From the IMG/VR virus record IMGVR_UViG_3300042566_002057, positions 1 to 64,000 of that record: a DNA stretch of 64,000 nucleotides. One strand, given 5' to 3'. Made by a program: the position numbers and the translations under genes. The notes below the pieces were generated by a model. That model was not told the origin of the DNA. It searched no databases and was given only the letters and a program-made list of their open reading frames with translations. The DNA is from a virus. Positions 1,768-44,877 of this stretch are shown piece by piece (the stretch's first letter is position 1; each line of letters opens with the position of its first letter).

Positions 1768-3314
1768 CGTAAGATAGTATCGATGTATCTTTCCATAAGA
1801 TTTACGGTTTTCATATCTTTATCTAAATTTTGTTCTTTAGATGCGTATTCTGCTCCTCTATTAACATCACCATCATTATAATAGAAATTTTTGATGATTA
1901 TTTCTACACCTCCTGAAAAATAACCACTCTGTTCGTTTACAAAATTTCTAATACTTTCCAATTTATATCTAATAAATAGTAGATCATCTAATGTTTCAAT
2001 TTTAGAATCTGTTAAATACTTCTGAATTTTCTGACTTAAAAGTACCATTTTACCAATCAGTTCATTTGTTTTCTCATCACCAGAACCTTTAACTCTTTCT
2101 ATTGAACCTTTATATCTATCATTAAATTTCACAGATTCTTCCTTTTTATCTTTAAATCTTCTACTAAGTTCTTCTAAGTAATGTGGTTTTTCTTCATCCG
2201 AAGAATTAATTAAATTTTTAATATTTCTAGATATTCTGTCAATAGTAGTTGGTATTGAAGGATTATCAGATATAAGAGCAAATAATATCATGTCTCCACA
2301 AGAAACAGATTTTATCATATTCTGAAGATTTCTTAATTCACTTTCGGTTGTTTTTATCGTAAGGCCATATAATTCAACTATCTTTGACAAATATCTTTGA
2401 TAGTTTAGTTTTTTTATTTCACTATCAGACATAAGAGCGGTTGCTCCTTTTTTCTCTTCAGATCTTAATTTTTTAATACCAGATACACTTTCATCACCTA
2501 TCAACTCGTCTATGTAAAGAACTATTGCAAAATCAACATCCTCTAAATTTGCTCTTTTAATAGAATAAGCATCTCTTCTTGTAGTCAAATTTCCATCTCT
2601 ATCTATAGCAAGTTCTTTATCCGATCCAACAATTTCCAAATCTTCTGATCCTCTTCTATAGATATGTAATTTTGAGTGGTCATCAGCGGGGTGATCAATT
2701 CGACCCAAATTCCAAGATCTTCTACCATATTGCCTCCAGTCACCATCTGGTGTTCCACCATCAGCTACATCTTGTATTCCAAAAAGTTTTTCTCCTTCAA
2801 TAAAAATTGTACCTAAAGCTAGATAACTCAGATGTTCATAGTCACTGAAATAACAAACTATCTCGTCACCTGTTTTTAGAACTGAATAATTAGTGACTGG
2901 TATTAATTTACCAGTTTTTAAACCTAAATTATCTTTAATATAGTTCATTTCTGTATCTGTAAACTCACCTGATGTATCTGAAATATCTTCTGATTTTCCA
3001 ACACCAGTAAATCCTAAATAACCTTTATCAATAGAAAACCAAAATTTAAGAGCATAAACACCTCGTGGGTTTGAGATATCATAATTTTCAGGGACTTGAA
3101 TCTCAAAAGCTTTTTTCGCAGACATATATCTAACTTGTCCATCAGATATTTTATCGATTGGAAAGTCATAAGATTCCATTAAGATATTTCTTAAGTGATT
3201 TAAAAACTTTTCCTTTTCACTTTTTGAGACCTTATCACCAATATAACTCAATACAGATCTAATTGCAGAAGATTCAAATGCTTCAAATAGCTTAAGATAT
3301 TTAAATTGTTTCAT
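1764..3314 (-). CDS. hypothetical protein, probable virion protein (N-terminal KYLKLFEAF motif)
   Basis: 516 aa ORF with the shared N-terminal motif and an upstream AATATATA. Confidence 0.75.
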   Translation of the reverse strand: MKQFKYLKLFEAFESSAIRSVLSYIGDKVSKSEKEKFLNHLRNILMESYDFPIDKISDGQVRYMSAKKAFEIQVPENYDISNPRGVYALKFWFSIDKGYLGFTGVGKSEDISDTSGEFTDTEMNYIKDNLGLKTGKLIPVTNYSVLKTGDEIVCYFSDYEHLSYLALGTIFIEGEKLFGIQDVADGGTPDGDWRQYGRRSWNLGRIDHPADDHSKLHIYRRGSEDLEIVGSDKELAIDRDGNLTTRRDAYSIKRANLEDVDFAIVLYIDELIGDESVSGIKKLRSEEKKGATALMSDSEIKKLNYQRYLSKIVELYGLTIKTTESELRNLQNMIKSVSCGDMILFALISDNPSIPTTIDRISRNIKNLINSSDEEKPHYLEELSRRFKDKKEESVKFNDRYKGSIERVKGSGDEKTNELIGKMVLLSQKIQKYLTDSKIETLDDLLFIRYKLESIRNFVNEQSGYFSGGVEIIIKNFYYNDGDVNRGAEYASKEQNLDKDMKTVNLMERYIDTILR

Positions 3315-3803
3315 CTTTTTATATATTAATTTTTTGGTGTTTAAAACTTATTTTCTATCTTTGTATACAATTAAAGAGACATCAAACAATAGTTTCTATT
3401 TTAACAGCTATGAAACAAGTATTTATACTTCAAGTGCTGAATATTTTTTTGTGAGTTTGATGTAATTATGGTAGTAAGTAGCTGGTAAATAAATTTGCAT
3501 TCTTATTAAAAAACAGTGAACTACCTCGTATTATAAATATAAAGATATAATAACTAAAGAATGCGGGTGTTGAAATTGTTGGTGATAAACATCTTAAACT
3601 AATTAAACTAAGAAACCCAACGAAAGAAGATTTAATCGAGTAGAATGGTAACACTACTCAAAGAAGGGTGATGAGCCCATTAAAAGGTAATCCTAAGTGA
3701 TGAGGTCACTAAAAGTCAAGATACTAAAGGTTCTAGGGTTCCGACCATACTTGACAGACGTTCCAAAATCTTCTTTTTTTAAGAAAGTTAAATAAAAAAT
3801 AAA

Positions 3804-4274: not shown

Positions 4275-4499
4275 ATGAAAAAATTAATATTTGTTTTAGT
4301 TGTTTTGGTTTCTCTAACTTCTTGTAATGGTAGAAGATTTAATTTAAGAGTTTGTAGTGGTGATGGCATCGCTTATACAGAAACTTGGATTGAGTGTGAT
4401 TCTTTCCAGATGGTTTCCAGAGACGAAGCAGTTATCTGGGTAGATGGTCAACAGATGAGAATTTTTGGAGACCGAGGAATTAAACCTGAAACAAATTAA
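4275..4499 (+). CDS. small lipoprotein
   Basis: MKK + hydrophobic stretch + LTSC lipobox; TATATTTG promoter element just upstream. Confidence 0.75.
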   Translation: MKKLIFVLVVLVSLTSCNGRRFNLRVCSGDGIAYTETWIECDSFQMVSRDEAVIWVDGQQMRIFGDRGIKPETN

Positions 4500-4527
4500 A
4501 CCAGTCTTTTGGTTGTTATATGATAAT

Positions 4528-4555
4528 AAAAAACCCACTATTAAGTGGGTTTTTT
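4528..4555. terminator. bidirectional intrinsic terminator
   Basis: AAAAAACCCACT-ATTA-AGTGGGTTTTTT between convergent genes. Confidence 0.8.
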
Positions 4556-5479
4556 AATAAGTTTATTGGTTGAAAATTCCCCAGTCGAATATTTTGGTTC
4601 CTTTGACATCTGCTGAATAGATTTTTTCTTTAGTTCATCATCTTTCTTTATAGATCCAATACAATCTATATCTACAACACATATCTCAAGAGAGCTTTGT
4701 TTATATTTTTTTCCTATAACTTCCCAACTATCCGGTTTATATTTAACATTTCCTTGATCATCAAGTTCTGGTTCTAATTTGTCTTCACCATATGGTCTTT
4801 CACTATATACACCAGAAAGACCCAAACTTTTAACCAAGTTCATTGAATCTTGATCCATTTCGGATATCATTTTGAAATCAAAATAGTCTGCTCTCAAAAA
4901 CTTACTTCCTGGTTTGATATTTATAGAATAAACAAATATACTATCAATATCTTCGGAAGCCCTTGCCATATAGTGTATAGTGTCCCAATCCGTTTTTTCG
5001 TCTTCGTCATAAGTACTCAGATAAAATCCCCATTTATTCTTGATATTTGCATCACCTTTTGATTTATCTTCTAAAGTTTCTGCTCTATCAGAAGACATTG
5101 GATTCATTGAGTTTTTTATAGAACCTGTGTTAAGATTAGGATTTAAAGAAACATGAGTAAAAAAACTAACATTGTTTTCTTTGATTATATCTTCAATAGA
5201 AATCCACATTTTTGACCAATGTTCTTTAAGATAAAAAGATTTTTTTTCTATCCACAGTTTATTTCTCTCTTCATCTGTTTTGTTATCAATATCTTTAATT
5301 TTAAGAAAGTTTTCTCTAGCAACATCATCTATCGTATAATTTTTAAAAAAATCTACGAATTTATCATTTTCACTCAGAATTCCTTTCCAAGGTAGTTGAT
5401 TTTTTACATCTAATGGATATTGATTAAATATATTATTTCCATCAATAGAAAAACTTTCAAATGTCTTAATATAAATCAT
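4541..5479 (-). CDS. hypothetical protein (N-terminal YIKTFESF motif)
   Basis: 312 aa ORF with the shared N-terminal motif and upstream AATATATA. Confidence 0.75.
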   Translation of the reverse strand: MIYIKTFESFSIDGNNIFNQYPLDVKNQLPWKGILSENDKFVDFFKNYTIDDVARENFLKIKDIDNKTDEERNKLWIEKKSFYLKEHWSKMWISIEDIIKENNVSFFTHVSLNPNLNTGSIKNSMNPMSSDRAETLEDKSKGDANIKNKWGFYLSTYDEDEKTDWDTIHYMARASEDIDSIFVYSINIKPGSKFLRADYFDFKMISEMDQDSMNLVKSLGLSGVYSERPYGEDKLEPELDDQGNVKYKPDSWEVIGKKYKQSSLEICVVDIDCIGSIKKDDELKKKSIQQMSKEPKYSTGEFSTNKLIKKPT

Positions 5480-6059: not shown

Positions 6060-6272
6060 ATGAGTCAGTTAAGAAACAATGGTATCTACTCTAAAAACGA
6101 GTATGTTGGGAAAACTTTAGAAGAAGCTAGTAAATATGCTGAACAAGGTGGATTCATAATACGAATAGTAGAAAAAGAAGGTATACCACTTATGCTTACA
6201 CACGATGTAAAAGAAAATAGATTAAACTTTAGAACAAAAGGTAATAAAGTTGTTGATGTCTTTGGTGGATAG
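6060..6272 (+). CDS. potato-inhibitor-fold (I13/I78-like) peptidase inhibitor
   Basis: VGKTLEEA...LTHDVKENRLNF...VVDVFGG pattern (TxD...RL...V..V..G). Confidence 0.6.
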   Translation: MSQLRNNGIYSKNEYVGKTLEEASKYAEQGGFIIRIVEKEGIPLMLTHDVKENRLNFRTKGNKVVDVFGG

Positions 6273-6331
6273 AAAATAAATACTTATATTTATATGCCTG
6301 GTTTGGATATTTAAATTGAAAAATATTGAAA

Positions 6332-6384
6332 TAAATTTGGTAGAATTAAAACTTTTATCTAATTTTGTATAAAATAATGACAAA
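6332..6384 (+). promoter_or_regulatory. Bacteroidota-type promoter; 53-nt block repeated identically at 19826-19878
   Basis: TTTG 6336-6339, 20-nt spacer, TAATTTTG 6360-6367; AATATATA follows at 6401. Confidence 0.8.
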
Positions 6385-6415
6385 GGAAGAATAACTTTTT
6401 AATATATAAGAAATA

Positions 6416-6517
6416 ATGACAACAAATCGCACACATAAACATTTTAGTAAATCGAGCAAGTGGTTTAGCACCCAGTTCGGTACTGAAAAAGTATTGCGTG
6501 ATTTGACTACACTATAA
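6416..6517 (+). CDS. attenuator leader peptide 1, MTTNRTHKHFSKSSKWFSTQFGTEKVLRDLTTL (Phe/His/Trp, also Lys/Ser)
   Basis: 33-codon ORF before a terminator and the Phe/His/Phe/Trp tRNAs; AGTTCGG 6474-6480 is complementary to the terminator 5' arm. Confidence 0.85.
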   Translation: MTTNRTHKHFSKSSKWFSTQFGTEKVLRDLTTL

Positions 6518-7063: not shown

Positions 7064-7099
7064 ATGAAAAAGAAAATGGAAACTAAACGAAAACGTTAA
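7064..7099 (+). CDS. putative Lys leader peptide MKKKMETKRKR
   Basis: 11 codons with 5 Lys, followed directly by a hairpin (7100-7129) and three Lys tRNAs. Confidence 0.65.
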   Translation: MKKKMETKRKR

Positions 7100-7227: not shown

Positions 7228-7315
7228 GCACCTATGGCTCAATTGGTAGAGCATCGCACTTTTAATGCGAGGGGTAGACGTAAGTCCGTTGAAGGTTCGA
7301 GTCCTTCTGGGTGCA
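7228..7315 (+). tRNA. tRNA-Lys(TTT) with long variable arm
   Basis: TCGCA-CTTTTAA-TGCGA; extended variable region containing GAC-GTAA-GTC. Confidence 0.85.
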
Positions 7316-7321
7316 CTAAAT

Positions 7322-7407: not shown

Positions 7408-7534
7408 GGGGATGTAGCTCAGTGGTAGAGAAAACTATCTCTTTTGAAATTTTACCTCGTGAGAGTGTTGATTGAAAGAGTTACTTCGTATATTTGAAAT
7501 TATAAGGTCGTGGGTTCGAATCCCACCATCCCCA
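7408..7534 (+). tRNA. tRNA of uncertain identity with a ~56-nt structured insertion after the D-arm
   Basis: Canonical GGGGATG/CATCCCC acceptor, D-arm and T-arm; insertion at about 7431-7487; irregular anticodon arm around TTGAAA. Confidence 0.65.
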
Positions 7535-20110: not shown

Positions 20111-20195
20111 CGGTAGGTACCCGAGCGGTCTTCAGGGACCAGTCTGATACACTGGGTGAGAAATCACAACGTGGGTTCAAATCCCACCCTACCGA
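20111..20195 (+). tRNA. tRNA-Ile(GAT) with long variable arm
   Basis: CCAGT-CTGATAC-ACTGG; variable hairpin GTGA-GAAA-TCAC. Confidence 0.82.
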
Positions 20196-20203
20196 CAAAA
20201 TAT

Positions 20204-20373: not shown

Positions 20374-20462
20374 GGGCTTGTAGCTGATTTGGTTTTAGCT
20401 GGTGACTGTTAATCACTGTATGAAAAATTGAAATAAAGTAGGTTCGAATCCTACCTGGCCCG
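20374..20462 (+). tRNA. tRNA-Asn(GTT) with long variable region
   Basis: GGTGA-CTGTTAA-TCACT; G73. Confidence 0.78.
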
Positions 20463-20468
20463 CAAATC

Positions 20469-33835: not shown

Positions 33836-35218
33836 ATGAGATATCTTAAGACTTTTGAGGGTATTGTACCGGTAAGACCTGGTACTAACAAAGAATATAG
33901 AATTCAGAATCTACCACATAAGGGAGAACCTATTGAGGATGATAATAATATCTCTATAATGCAACAAGATTGGTTTGAAAAATTACTACCAGATACTCTT
34001 TATATTGTATCTGATCCAAAATTGAGTAAATTAAACTTCGACCAATCATTAACTCCAGTTCCAAAAGGAGAATATGCCTTCGATAAAAATGATTGTACCA
34101 TAGATAATGGATTAGTTCAATTTAATTATTGGTATGATCCAAGATTACATCCAGGTACTGAGTTAGAAGATGGTGAACCATCTTGTATTGAATTTGATAT
34201 TCATTTCTCAAAAAATGATAGTGGATTTAAATTAATTGTTGATATAACTTATGGTGATCATAAAGCAACTGAATTTACAATTGAAGCTCCAAATAAGATT
34301 AATGTTGTTCACTATACTGGTGTTGATTCTAAATACGATGACTCTACACACTGGGGATTCAAAGATGAATCTATAAAAGATTTAGTGAAATTCTTTAATG
34401 CTTTTAATCATGGTATACAAATACAACCTGAAGATTTATCATTTATTGATGAGCATTTTGATAGTTATAAACACGATATACATAATCAAGATCATCTTTA
34501 TACAGATGAATCTGATTTAATTGAGTTTGGTAATTCAGTGAAAGAATCAAATGATTCTGATATATTTTTGATTATTAATAATGCTAAACCACCTCAGTAT
34601 AAATATTATCCAAAAGTAGTTAAGTATTTAACTATTAAAAATTTACCATTTAGAGTGGCTACTACACCTGAAGAAGTAGAAAAATATAATTCAGAATATA
34701 ATATTATAGGTGCTTTTTCAACCGGTTCTGATTTTAGTATGACTAATCCAGATTCAACTTCTGAATATTCAACAAATGAAAAAGCGTTAGAAATATTAAG
34801 TTGTCCTATAATTTCTATGTGTTATGGTTTCCAATCAATGGCTAAGTTTTATGGTCAAGAAATAACAGGTGGAGACTTAAACTGTAATCAATTCTTACTA
34901 ACTGATTATGATGATTCACACTTCTTGTTTAGTGGAATTGATCTATCAACTCAGAAATTAAGTTTTTGTTTTCATGATTATCCAGTTAATGTACCTTCTG
35001 GTTTTAGAAATATTGCAATGTTAGGTGATGTTATTTCTGGAATATCAAACACATCAACCGAAAGATATGGTATACTTTTTCATCCTGAAGAATTAGAACA
35101 AACTTATATTATCTTAGATAATTTTGTAAATCATTGTTATTCTAAGGTAAGTTTTAATAAAGAAAGTGAGTTTATTCTACAAACTTATGAATCTTTTATT
35201 AATAAAATCAAAAAATAA
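33836..35218 (+). CDS. phage domain fused to a class I glutamine amidotransferase-like domain
   Basis: SMCYGFQ nucleophile elbow and FHPE; N-terminal MRYLKTFE motif. Confidence 0.75.
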   Translation: MRYLKTFEGIVPVRPGTNKEYRIQNLPHKGEPIEDDNNISIMQQDWFEKLLPDTLYIVSDPKLSKLNFDQSLTPVPKGEYAFDKNDCTIDNGLVQFNYWYDPRLHPGTELEDGEPSCIEFDIHFSKNDSGFKLIVDITYGDHKATEFTIEAPNKINVVHYTGVDSKYDDSTHWGFKDESIKDLVKFFNAFNHGIQIQPEDLSFIDEHFDSYKHDIHNQDHLYTDESDLIEFGNSVKESNDSDIFLIINNAKPPQYKYYPKVVKYLTIKNLPFRVATTPEEVEKYNSEYNIIGAFSTGSDFSMTNPDSTSEYSTNEKALEILSCPIISMCYGFQSMAKFYGQEITGGDLNCNQFLLTDYDDSHFLFSGIDLSTQKLSFCFHDYPVNVPSGFRNIAMLGDVISGISNTSTERYGILFHPEELEQTYIILDNFVNHCYSKVSFNKESEFILQTYESFINKIKK

Positions 35219-35309
35219 TTTGGTCAGATTGAAACTTATCTATATCTTTGTAGTATAAATCTGACAAATAATTAAAAAGAGAGTAATAATATTTAATATA
35301 TAAGAAATA

Positions 35310-35405
35310 ATGACAACAATTAACGTAAATATCGCACAAGTTAACCCGCAACCTCAGGATCAGGATCGTGAGAGAGTGGCTAACTATGTCTTTACAATAA
35401 GTTAA
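35310..35405 (+). CDS. attenuator leader peptide 7, MTTINVNIAQVNPQPQDQDRERVANYVFTIS (Gln/Pro/Asp)
   Basis: CCG CAA CCT CAG GAT CAG GAT; GTGGCTAACT 35376-35385 pairs with GGTTAGTCAC 35435-35444; promoter TTTG 35219 / TATCTTTG 35243. Confidence 0.9.
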   Translation: MTTINVNIAQVNPQPQDQDRERVANYVFTIS

Positions 35406-35427
35406 TGTTTAAGTTAAATAAATTTGT

Positions 35428-35463
35428 AAAACCCGGTTAGTCACAAACTAATCGGGTTTTTTT
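35428..35463 (+). terminator. attenuator terminator 7
   Basis: AAAACCCGGTTAGT-CACAA-ACTAATCGGGTTTT plus T-tract. Confidence 0.92.
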
Positions 35464-35465
35464 AT

Positions 35466-35538
35466 TGTCCTATGGTGTAATTGGCAACACGTCTGGTTTT
35501 GATCCAGAAGAGTTGAGGTTCGAGCCCTTGTGGGACAG
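35466..35538 (+). tRNA. tRNA-Gln(TTG)
   Basis: TCTGG-TTTTGAT-CCAGA; T1-A72. Confidence 0.9.
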
Positions 35539-35543
35539 CAAAA

Positions 35544-35617
35544 CGAGAAGTGACTAAGGTTTTAAGCACGGGCGGTCTGGAGCCGTCAGTTAGTGGGTTC
35601 GATTCCCACCTTCTCGA
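35544..35617 (+). tRNA. tRNA-Pro(TGG)
   Basis: GGCGG-TCTGGAG-CCGTC; C1-G72; A73. Confidence 0.75.
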
Positions 35618-35622
35618 CAAAT

Positions 35623-35695
35623 GGTCTATTGGTGAAATGGCTTATCATCCCATCCTGTCACGATGGAGTAGACGGATCGTAACCGTCATAGACCG
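35623..35695 (+). tRNA. tRNA-Asp(GTC)
   Basis: CCATC-CTGTCAC-GATGG; G73. Confidence 0.88.
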
Positions 35696-35759
35696 CACAA
35701 AGTAACTGTTTGGCGGTGAAAGTACTCTTTAGAGAATAGAGTAAAATAATTCTCAATAT

Positions 35760-35842
35760 TGTGGAGTCGGCTAATTGGCAGGCCACCTGACTTTGAATCA
35801 GGGAGATAACACTCAGTGTAGGTTCGAGTCCTACCTCCACAA
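35760..35842 (+). tRNA. tRNA-Gln(TTG) with long variable arm
   Basis: CCTGA-CTTTGAA-TCAGG. Confidence 0.82.
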
Positions 35843-35849
35843 CAAAAAA

Positions 35850-35937
35850 CTAGGTGTGTAGGCAATTGGAAGCCGACCTGATTTGGGGTCAGGAATGAAC
35901 ATAAAGTTCTATGTGGGTTCGAGTCCCACCACTTAGA
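35850..35937 (+). tRNA. tRNA-Pro(TGG) with long variable arm
   Basis: CCTGA-TTTGGGG-TCAGG; GAAC-ATAAA-GTTC variable hairpin. Confidence 0.82.
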
Positions 35938-35943
35938 CAAATT

Positions 35944-36016
35944 GGTCTATTGGTGAAATGGCTTATCATTCCATCCTGTCACGATGGAGTAGACGGATCG
36001 TAACCGTCATAGACCG
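35944..36016 (+). tRNA. tRNA-Asp(GTC), near-identical duplicate of 35623..35695
   Basis: One substitution relative to the first copy. Confidence 0.88.
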
Positions 36017-36042
36017 CAAAAATTTAGAAATTTAATATAAGT

Positions 36043-37343: not shown

Positions 37344-37739
37344 ATGAAAAAATTATTTTTAGACGATATAAGACAACCAAAAGATGCAATCAATCTTGTA
37401 CCATCACATCACAATAGAATGTATTGGGAACAAGATTGGCATGTTGTAAGAAATTACAAAGAGTTTACTAACTGGATATCATTTCATGGTGTACCTGACT
37501 TAATTAGTTTTGACCACGATTTGGCTGATATTCACTATGAAGTAGACTTCTCTGATTGGGAATTTTCTTCTGACCAACTTGGTGTTGAAGAAACTGGACT
37601 TGACTGTGCAAAATGGTTAGTTGATTACTGTGTAGACAATGGATTTGGTTTACCACAATATATCGTTCATTCTGCAAACCCTGCTGGTAAGAAAAATATC
37701 CAAGGATATTTAGATAACGCAACAAAACACTTATTTTAA
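37344..37739 (+). CDS. cyclic-phosphate-processing receiver-like domain protein
   Basis: LFLDDIR.P, ISFDHDL, TG.DCAKWL and HSANP.G motifs. Confidence 0.75.
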   Translation: MKKLFLDDIRQPKDAINLVPSHHNRMYWEQDWHVVRNYKEFTNWISFHGVPDLISFDHDLADIHYEVDFSDWEFSSDQLGVEETGLDCAKWLVDYCVDNGFGLPQYIVHSANPAGKKNIQGYLDNATKHLF

Positions 37740-43455: not shown

Positions 43456-43543
43456 GGGGAAGTTCCAGAGAGGCAAATGGGGTTTCAGTTGGTGCTGAAA
43501 TTGGTCTTAAGATCTTCGTAGGTTCGAGTCCTATCCTTCCCCA
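43456..43543 (+). tRNA. class II tRNA-like gene with aberrant anticodon loop
   Basis: GGGGAAG/CTTCCCC acceptor; TTTCA-GTTGGTGC-TGAAA; variable hairpin; canonical T-arm. Confidence 0.6.
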
Positions 43544-43731: not shown

Positions 43732-43804
<73 letters not shown>

Positions 43805-43839
43805 CTAAAGAAAAACGTTCTTTGATTTATTGATTTTAC

Positions 43840-44715
43840 AGATTCTTTGACTTCGGTCATTGATGAATGTAACGGCCGCTTATGGTCGATAAATAAACCT
43901 CGAAAGGGGGATAAAGTGGATACAAAAGCTAATTGTATCTGCGTCTTGAGAGTTCTTCGGAACAATTGAGGTCGAGTAAGCAAGTGGGGCACCACAAGTT
44001 CTGAGTAGTCGAGGGTAACACTGTAGACCAAATGAGTTTGTGACTGGGCAATTGTAGATTGTTCAGTTGACTTCGGAAGAGGAATAGGAATAACCCATAG
44101 GAATTTTGTAAGAAATAAAGACTCACCGGTTTTTACTATTGCGAGTTCCAACTCAAAAGGTGTCTTAAAGTTGAAAGACAATCAGTCGTACAGGTGGTGC
44201 TGTTGACTGACACTAATCTCTCTACCAAGAGAGTAGATAAACCGAAAGGTAAGTCGTGGTGAAGATATCTTGAAGAGTTGTGATGGAGGCATCACACGGA
44301 GTAGTCCAGTATTCTTGAGACCAAAAGTTTTGAGAGCTGAGAGGTGACCACTACTTCGACATATCTACTAGCACTAAATTTCTAACTGTTAATTGGAAAC
44401 ATTTAAAAAATAAGAAATCGAAAGTGTTACCTAGTTACTGATGAAAGGTACCTACTTAGTCGTGAGTGTTCACGGCCACTGAAGCTCGAAAGGCTGACGT
44501 GATTTCATCGAAAAACTTATAGAGGGTCGAACCTCGAATCAGCTCGCAAGGTTGAATAAGCGGATTAAATGGAGAGTAAACAGTAACTCAAGAAGTGGTT
44601 AGTCTAACTAACCGGTACTGACAGAATACTACTCAAAAGGTAGTGGATAAGAAGGGAAACAATAATCCAACTAAAGTTCTGTCGCCATAGGATGTAATCT
44701 CAGTCCTTTTTTTTT
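43840..44715 (+). ncRNA. large structured ncRNA, probably GOLLD-like
   Basis: About 870 nt without a plausible + strand ORF; GC-richer; many GNRA/TTCG hairpins; flanked by tRNAs; ends GGATGTAATCTCAGTCC + T9. Family assignment is from memory only. Confidence 0.65.
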
Positions 44716-44719
44716 ATAT

Positions 44720-44793
44720 GGTCGGTTCGTCTAGCGGTTTAGGACGATAATCTTTTCAGATTAGAAACAGAGGTTCGAATCCTCTACCGACTA
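44720..44793 (+). tRNA. tRNA-Glu-like with 8-nt anticodon loop
   Basis: Glu-type body; ATAAT-CTTTTCAG-ATTAG. Confidence 0.65.
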
Positions 44794-44877
44794 CGAGTTT
44801 TCGTAGTGGTTAACTTATCCTCTAAACAGAGGGGTCTGTCTCAGAGACAGGGTGGATACCCAACTCCACACTAATAT

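Follow-up and report, generated by a model that had tools for sequence, protein, structure and literature searches.

A putative ribosome-mediated attenuator ahead of six Gln, Pro and Asp tRNA genes in a phage genome

Introduction

tRNA genes are generally thought to be controlled through their promoters, and how phages control many tRNA genes is, to our knowledge, largely unknown. The enterobacterial thr leader, which senses threonine and isoleucine, and the ilvGMEDA leader, which senses isoleucine, leucine and valine, are multivalent attenuators. The pheM leader attenuator of E. coli controls pheST, encoding phenylalanyl-tRNA synthetase. The T-box (RF00230) works without translation, binding uncharged tRNA directly via one specifier codon.

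The window analysed here is a 64,000-nt stretch of viral DNA (positions 1 to 64,000 of IMG/VR record IMGVR_UViG_3300042566_002057). It contains a unit for which the thr and ilv multivalent leaders and pheM-pheST are the closest systems in logic. As in thr and ilvGMEDA, a short leader, here predicted to be translated, carries a run of codons for several amino acids and precedes an intrinsic terminator whose 5' arm can alternatively pair with a leader segment, the position of the ribosome, by inference in the phage unit, deciding between the two. The phage unit differs from thr and ilvGMEDA in its target, tRNA genes instead of biosynthetic enzymes, so that the loop would close on decoding capacity. 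Its region 2 lies within the ORF, about six codons before the stop, and the unit is a phage-borne, apparently copied cassette without sequence or Rfam relation to thr or ilvGMEDA. Unlike thr, ilvGMEDA and the trp attenuator, it has no supported 1:2 helix, and its untranslated state is predicted to be ON. With pheM-pheST it shares the leader-peptide logic, a target in the translation apparatus and the decoding of cognate codons as the signal; pheM, however, is cellular and serves a synthetase and one amino acid, whereas the phage unit is viral and concerns tRNA genes for three. Terminator/antiterminator control answering to the state of specific tRNAs is common to the T-box and the phage unit, but the latter has an ORF with a start, a stop and several codon types. 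Searching Rfam with the whole window at gathering score and with the leader (35200-35475) at E-values up to 10 gave no known leader, T-box or riboswitch; the best score for an amino-acid leader was 14 bits (Trp_leader), against a gathering score of 41.

We interpret the unit as a ribosome-mediated transcription attenuator which gates an operon of six tRNA genes and is tuned to decoding speed, and estimate the probability of this reading at roughly 0.7. The anatomy, the conservation and the leader-tRNA match are observed. That the leader is translated, that termination is regulated and that the response runs in the proposed direction is inferred.

Organisation of the locus

The window is part of a contig of 151,950 bp with a G+C content of 30.7%. 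ARAGORN, on whose defaults all tRNA calls depend, identified 36 tRNA genes on this contig, all within the window, on the plus strand and in a few clusters. The contig has no tRNA genes for Gln, Pro or Asp apart from the six at 35466-36017. The unit consists of the following elements:

35219-35250, plus strand: candidate Bacteroidota-type promoter from a contig pattern scan (TTTG at 35219-35222, 20-nt spacer, TAnnTTTG at 35243-35250)
35294-35302, plus strand: TAATATATA box, 7 nt upstream of the leader ATG
35310-35405, plus strand: leader ORF, 31 codons plus stop (stop codon at 35403-35405)
35337-35366, plus strand: sensor, leader codons 10-19 (Q10-D19), 8 of 10 being Gln, Pro or Asp
35376-35385, plus strand: region 2, the antiterminator 5' strand, inside the ORF (codons 23-26); conserved core 35378-35385
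35391-35430, plus strand: inner hairpin (35391-35397 with 35424-35430) surrounding the stop codon
35429-35463, plus strand: intrinsic terminator with a 13-bp stem (35429-35441/35447-35459), 5-nt loop and 7-T run (35457-35463)
35435-35444, plus strand: region 3, the antiterminator 3' strand, overlapping the terminator 5' arm; core 35435-35442
35466-35539, plus strand: tRNA-Gln(UUG), ARAGORN
35544-35618, plus strand: tRNA-Pro(UGG), ARAGORN
35623-35696, plus strand: tRNA-Asp(GUC), ARAGORN
35697-35759, plus strand: inter-triplet spacer of 63 nt with two short overlapping hairpin options (35723-28/35738-43 and 35732-37/35749-54)
35760-35843, plus strand: second tRNA-Gln, ARAGORN, 84 nt, long variable arm
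35850-35938, plus strand: second tRNA-Pro, ARAGORN, 89 nt, long variable arm
35944-36017, plus strand: second tRNA-Asp, ARAGORN

The original prediction had placed a Gln/Pro/Asp sensor run ahead of Gln, Pro, Asp, Gln, Pro and Asp tRNAs, and both the ORF and the ARAGORN calls put all elements where it had them. The span which it assigned to the element, 35310-36016, was correctly positioned but ended one base short, as the last tRNA extends to 36017. Within the sensor, Gln is encoded by CAA, CAA, CAG and CAG, Pro by CCG and CCT, and Asp by GAT and GAT, and every one of these codons is readable by the downstream anticodons UUG, UGG and GUC.

The 10-nt strands 35376-85/35435-44 together with the 7-nt strands 35391-97/35424-30 fold with -20.2 kcal/mol, compared to -11.4 +/- 2.7 kcal/mol for shuffled sequences (z -3.3). 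Since region 3 shares seven bases (35435-35441) with the 5' arm of the terminator, antiterminator and terminator are mutually exclusive. Between the end of the terminator and the start of tRNA-Gln, only 2 nt remain.

Two candidate expression signals are located upstream of the ORF. The TTTG/TAnnTTTG element at 35219-35250 is inferred to be a promoter of the Bacteroidota type (-33/-7 pattern). It occurs with equal spacing upstream of the window's leaders A, D and F, and a strict match is found in 29 of 51 homologues, 44-59 nt ahead of the ATG. The TAATATATA box is present in 33 copies on the 152-kb contig, on either strand, most of them with a start ATG following within a few to about 25 nt; examples in the window are 33822, 35294, 6400 and 19904, one of which precedes the 460-aa gene at 33836. 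Among the homologues, 49 of 51 have this box 5-11 nt ahead of the leader ATG. This box, which differs from the TTTG..TAnnTTTG pattern, may be a promoter or initiation signal specific to the phage, and its usual position just before start codons implies that the leader has the start signals of ordinary genes.

The homologue family

Homologues were collected with tRNA-, terminator- and leader-anchored scans of viral contigs and one scan of metagenome contigs. This resulted in 80 distinct homologues from viral and metagenome contigs, 53 of which remain below 93% identity. The search pattern has biased the choice of orthologues, as 12 of the 16 bases of the antiterminator core were fixed in the metagenome scan. 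A loose pattern scan of the viral contigs mostly returned chance matches, L022, L044, L045 and L056 being its only family members. No homologue was found in 596 Gb of prokaryote genomes: the 32 pattern matches were all chance occurrences within genes, without the ORF, the terminator and the tRNAs, which ruled them out as a clue to the host. Two uncultured phage genomes, one of 634 and one of 642 kb, are the closest relatives in the databases and carry the same Gln/Pro/Asp unit. Assignment of the host to the Bacteroidota is inferred and rests only on the promoter type and on relatives.

Based on the tRNAs called behind the 53 homologues, 171 out of 181 are specific for Asp (75), Pro (51) or Gln (45), and every member with sufficient contig has Asp, Pro or Gln tRNAs downstream of the leader. 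Five homologues are without a called tRNA. Three of these lack contig room, and the other two have a gap of 700-800 nt before Pro and Asp tRNAs (in L077 also Gln). The leader ORF is intact in 67 of 70 distinct family members; the three exceptions are explained by a contig edge, a longer ORF starting from an upstream ATG, and a chance match. The geometry is conserved as well, with median distances of 11 nt from sensor to region 2, 12 nt from region 2 to the stop codon and 22 nt from the stop codon to the terminator.

Between the Gln/Pro/Asp attenuator and the tRNAs of L077, positions 2478-3000 hold an inserted gene, apparently a mobile endonuclease, that shows an HNH-like motif and has a separate TAATATATA box.

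Sensor composition and the downstream tRNAs

Eight Gln, Pro or Asp residues within ten are found in only two of the 865 small ORFs (15-60 codons) of the 152-kb contig, namely this leader and a proline-rich antisense frame. The window contains seven leader/tRNA units, and the other six leaders have 0-2 of these residues each. When the seven leaders were scored against the seven tRNA sets, the true pairing was the single best of 5040. For eight units from other phages, the true pairing of leaders and tRNAs ranked within the top 2 of 40320. The tRNAs are sometimes grouped differently in these phages, with Asp next to Phe, Glu and Ala, and Pro and Gln next to Lys, Tyr, Thr and Gly, and the composition of the leader changes accordingly.

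Across the homologues, the third position of the Pro codons in the sensor varies and the amino acid is retained. CCG makes up 45% of the Pro codons in the sensors versus 6.9% in the genes of the phage. This preference fits selection for slow codons which sharpen the sensor, and could also be explained by a structural role.

Relatives possess a second leader family (L001 2532-2582, L002 2311-2364 and many metagenome loci) with 4-7 Gln codons and a terminator. These poly-Gln leaders precede blocks of 2-4 tRNA-Gln genes, and the genome of the window has no such unit. Even in relatives with a poly-Gln leader devoted to the Gln tRNAs, the first leader still contains Gln codons, showing that the matching is not perfectly tight. 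A tight tracking, by which Gln codons would be lost once the Gln tRNAs acquire a leader of their own, mostly does not hold.

Conservation of the RNA folds

The terminator covaries across the family: 91.5% of the cells are paired, six pairs are changed on both sides, and none of 500 shuffles was as good. The 53 sequences contain 32 distinct pairs of terminator arms. For the antiterminator, the 8-bp core is paired in 94% of the cells across the family, while only one-sided changes (G-U to A-U etc.) and no compensatory pair were observed among the orthologues. Conservation does not extend to the outer two pairs of the 10-bp helix, which form in only 32% of the cells.

Four bases of the region 2 motif are invariant in the 53 sequences and the others nearly so. 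The motif is preserved in three members in which it is read in another frame. One subgroup had its terminator stem replaced outright and retains the region 3 motif, now partly in the loop. That the antiterminator core survives both stem replacement and frame change points to a constraint on the RNA and not on the peptide. Both antiterminator motifs are also present in 10 of 10 leaders retrieved without a constraint on regions 2 and 3. Per sequence, the antiterminator duplex scores modestly better than shuffles (median z -1.7), and it is modestly better than in a cross-family control (-10.6 versus -7.7 kcal/mol). This control, combining Gln/Pro/Asp ORFs with terminators of poly-Gln units, is not clean, since the poly-Gln terminators are paralogous and share the motif.

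The sequence of the inner hairpin is unconserved; the equivalent stretch in relatives folds with a median of -4.7 kcal/mol (median z -1.5). A trp-style 1:2 helix is not supported. It appears in the minimum-energy fold of the window, but is paired in 59.6% of the cells across the family, no better than shuffles, and on a truncated transcript it is outcompeted by the 2:3 helix.

The 10-bp and 7-bp helices originally proposed around the stop codon are thus present and exclude the terminator, but only the inner 8 bp of the longer one are kept in relatives. Covariation across homologues, put forward as a check, gave a mixed answer: the terminator covaries and core pairing of the antiterminator is conserved, but the latter offers no compensatory change. 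Overall, the attenuator reading finds support in the intact ORFs, the matching tRNAs, the terminator covariation, the conserved core and the position of the sensor; read-through itself is inferred.

Proposed mechanism

In the proposed mechanism, transcription would start at one of the two upstream signals and yield the 31-codon leader. When decoding capacity is short, slow reading of the Gln, Pro and Asp codons 10-19 would hold the ribosome upstream of region 2, which could pair with region 3 once this is made. The terminator would then be blocked and RNA polymerase would enter the tRNA genes. When reading is fast, regions 3 and 4 would emerge with the ribosome already on or just past region 2, or else at the stop codon within the antiterminator loop. 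The local terminator hairpin would then prevail, ending transcription 2 nt before tRNA-Gln. The predicted outcome is a negative feedback which keeps the supply of the three tRNAs at the level that translation needs. The phage therefore probably makes its Gln, Pro and Asp tRNAs only when ribosomes decode those codons slowly, an inference made without expression data.

Folding of the full transcript at equilibrium always favours the terminator, whatever is masked, the sensor included. This rules out a purely thermodynamic switch and implies that the switch must be kinetic. The terminator of the E. coli trp leader is likewise favoured at equilibrium.

The kinetic case was approached with a footprint model, in which a ribosome is assumed to mask -15 to +12 around the A-site and the transcript ends just before the 3' arm of the terminator. 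For the window, the modelled probability of the 2:3 helix is 0.99 with A-site codons 2-19 and about 0 with codons 22-30, the last sensor codon being the last fully permissive one. Among the homologues, the modelled permissive boundary lies 0 to 5 codons past the last sensor codon in 43 of 53 cases, most often 1. The simple mask does not keep the antiterminator from forming when the ribosome stands at the stop codon (P 0.82); that such a ribosome, situated within the loop, blocks the 2:3 helix is inferred from a steric argument only. In the absence of a ribosome, the antiterminator, and not a 1:2 helix, is predicted as well (median P 0.93). Termination would therefore depend on active translation, with ON as the predicted default.

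Alternative explanations

The same machinery might respond to a different signal, i.e. amino-acid starvation (uncharged tRNA) or a general slowdown of translation, in which case it would report on host nutrition and not feed back on tRNA supply. Classical trp and his leaders sense charged tRNA, which depends on both the amino acid and the tRNA, and our model predicts read-through if region 2 is not reached by a ribosome in time; a global block of translation of any kind would then also turn the unit ON. Extra tRNA, however, gives no relief from amino-acid starvation, and a nutritional sensor need not name exactly its downstream tRNAs, unit by unit. Where other phages have regrouped the tRNAs, as with Asp next to Phe, Glu and Ala, the leader composition follows. 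For these reasons we regard such a signal as unlikely, though it deserves the most attention among the alternatives. Considerably weaker is the case for a hairpin that acts as a constitutive or leaky terminator, or as an element for pre-tRNA processing or stability, next to an ORF kept for another reason and with the ribosome position irrelevant. The dominance of the terminator at equilibrium and the absence of compensatory covariation in the antiterminator among orthologues would agree with it. A processing role would also suit the 2-nt distance to the first tRNA, by which the leader doubles as the 5' leader removed by RNase P. It leaves unexplained why the ORF of every unit uses the codons of its downstream tRNAs, why each ORF contains, just past the sensor, a copy of the 3' arm of its own terminator, and why the motif is retained across frame shifts and stem replacement.

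The conserved ORF and its gene-like start signals could also belong to a functional small protein acting in trans, the composition of which is unrelated to regulation. This is hard to reconcile with a C-terminal half that is conserved as nucleotides and not as amino acids, as seen in the three members with another frame, with the variable length and N-terminal residues, and with a composition tracking the downstream tRNAs; moreover, the leader peptide belongs to no Pfam or PHROG family. We consider it very improbable. As for a chance ORF beside an ordinary terminator, AT-rich DNA is rich in small ORFs, as the 865 on this contig illustrate, but just one other reaches an equal Gln/Pro/Asp density and the permutation tests disagree with chance. 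The 80 distinct homologues all precede the same tRNAs; all 32 pattern matches in prokaryotes lack ORF, terminator and tRNAs. The conservation data already refute this last explanation.

Sibling units and the wider family of attenuators

The attenuator reading extends to other units of the window. Six attenuators each have a different region 2, located 2-5 codons past the sensor and matching their own terminator arm, and the true pairing of region 2 and terminator across these paralogues is the best of 720. They share a cassette of promoter, box, leader, terminator and tRNA block with paralogous 5' parts; the unit described here has its own Gln/Pro/Asp sensor, region 2 and terminator sequence, and its orthologue set is the largest of those examined. 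Leaders A, F and G are plainly paralogous in promoter, 5' UTR and first codons. Judging from these sequences, the cassette was copied, after which sensor, region 2 and terminator were re-written for each tRNA set, and this re-writing is the real sign of selection. The original prediction had argued for selection rather than a local duplication; selection is upheld by the unit-specific sensors and regions 2, but the paralogy of leaders A, F and G indicates that the cassette was copied.

An 11-codon Lys-rich leader at 7065-7099 lies ahead of three tRNA-Lys genes. The hairpin after it lacks a T-run, so the mechanism of this unit may differ from that of its siblings.

A comparable arrangement is found in the cultured Cellulophaga phage phi4:1 (NC_021788.1, L301), where three leader-plus-terminator units occur in a tRNA array (approximately 3560-3690, 4490-4665 and 6270-6425). 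All three leaders abound in residues matching their downstream tRNAs, and a terminator comes after each; the annotation lists one unit as hypothetical protein gp075. Since this phage and its host are in culture, the design is open to direct testing.

On balance, and somewhat less firmly than for the single unit, we favour the view that phages of aquatic Bacteroidota run a modular, codon-addressed tRNA homeostat, whose blocks are ON by default and are switched off only when ribosomes cross the matching leader fast. The Gln/Pro/Asp unit would be one of about seven channels in its genome and belong to a family of at least 53 diverged lineages. Full-text literature searches returned no account of leader-peptide attenuation of tRNA genes, and this would be its first case. 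If true, decoding speed would feed back directly on tRNA synthesis, which would explain how, in a phage with dozens of tRNAs, each set is kept from over- or underproduction when the host pool shifts or comes under attack. The short modular units, differing only in sensor codons and one helix, would then also be ready-made, interchangeable, codon-specific sensors of tRNA availability in vivo.

Neighbouring genes and further RNA elements

Upstream, the unit is flanked by the 460-aa gene (33836), which has a class I glutamine amidotransferase domain. Downstream follow small genes of unknown function and a protein with a cREC_REC (cyclic-phosphate processing receiver) domain (37344-37739, E-value 1.5e-22). 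This domain is linked to RNA repair systems and may bear on tRNA damage during infection.

The 63-nt element that separates the tRNA triplets is also found, conserved and equally placed, in L001 and L111. In the second triplet, tRNA-Gln and tRNA-Pro (35760-35843 and 35850-35938) resemble class II tRNAs in that their variable arm is long and paired. Unusually long tRNA genes are also seen in other clusters for Lys, Ile and Asn (7228-7316, 20111-20196 and 20374-20463), and long tRNA-Gln genes occur in L001 and L002. At 7408-7534, an Rfam tRNA match of 45.4 bits extends over 127 nt, which marks a tRNA gene split by roughly 55 nt of inserted sequence; ARAGORN detects it only in intron mode. Finally, a full-length GOLLD RNA (Rfam RF02032, 298.9 bits) is located at 44297-44706, between tRNA or tRNA-like genes at 43456-43542, 43732-43805 and 44720-44794, two of which were assigned abnormal 2-nt anticodons by ARAGORN.
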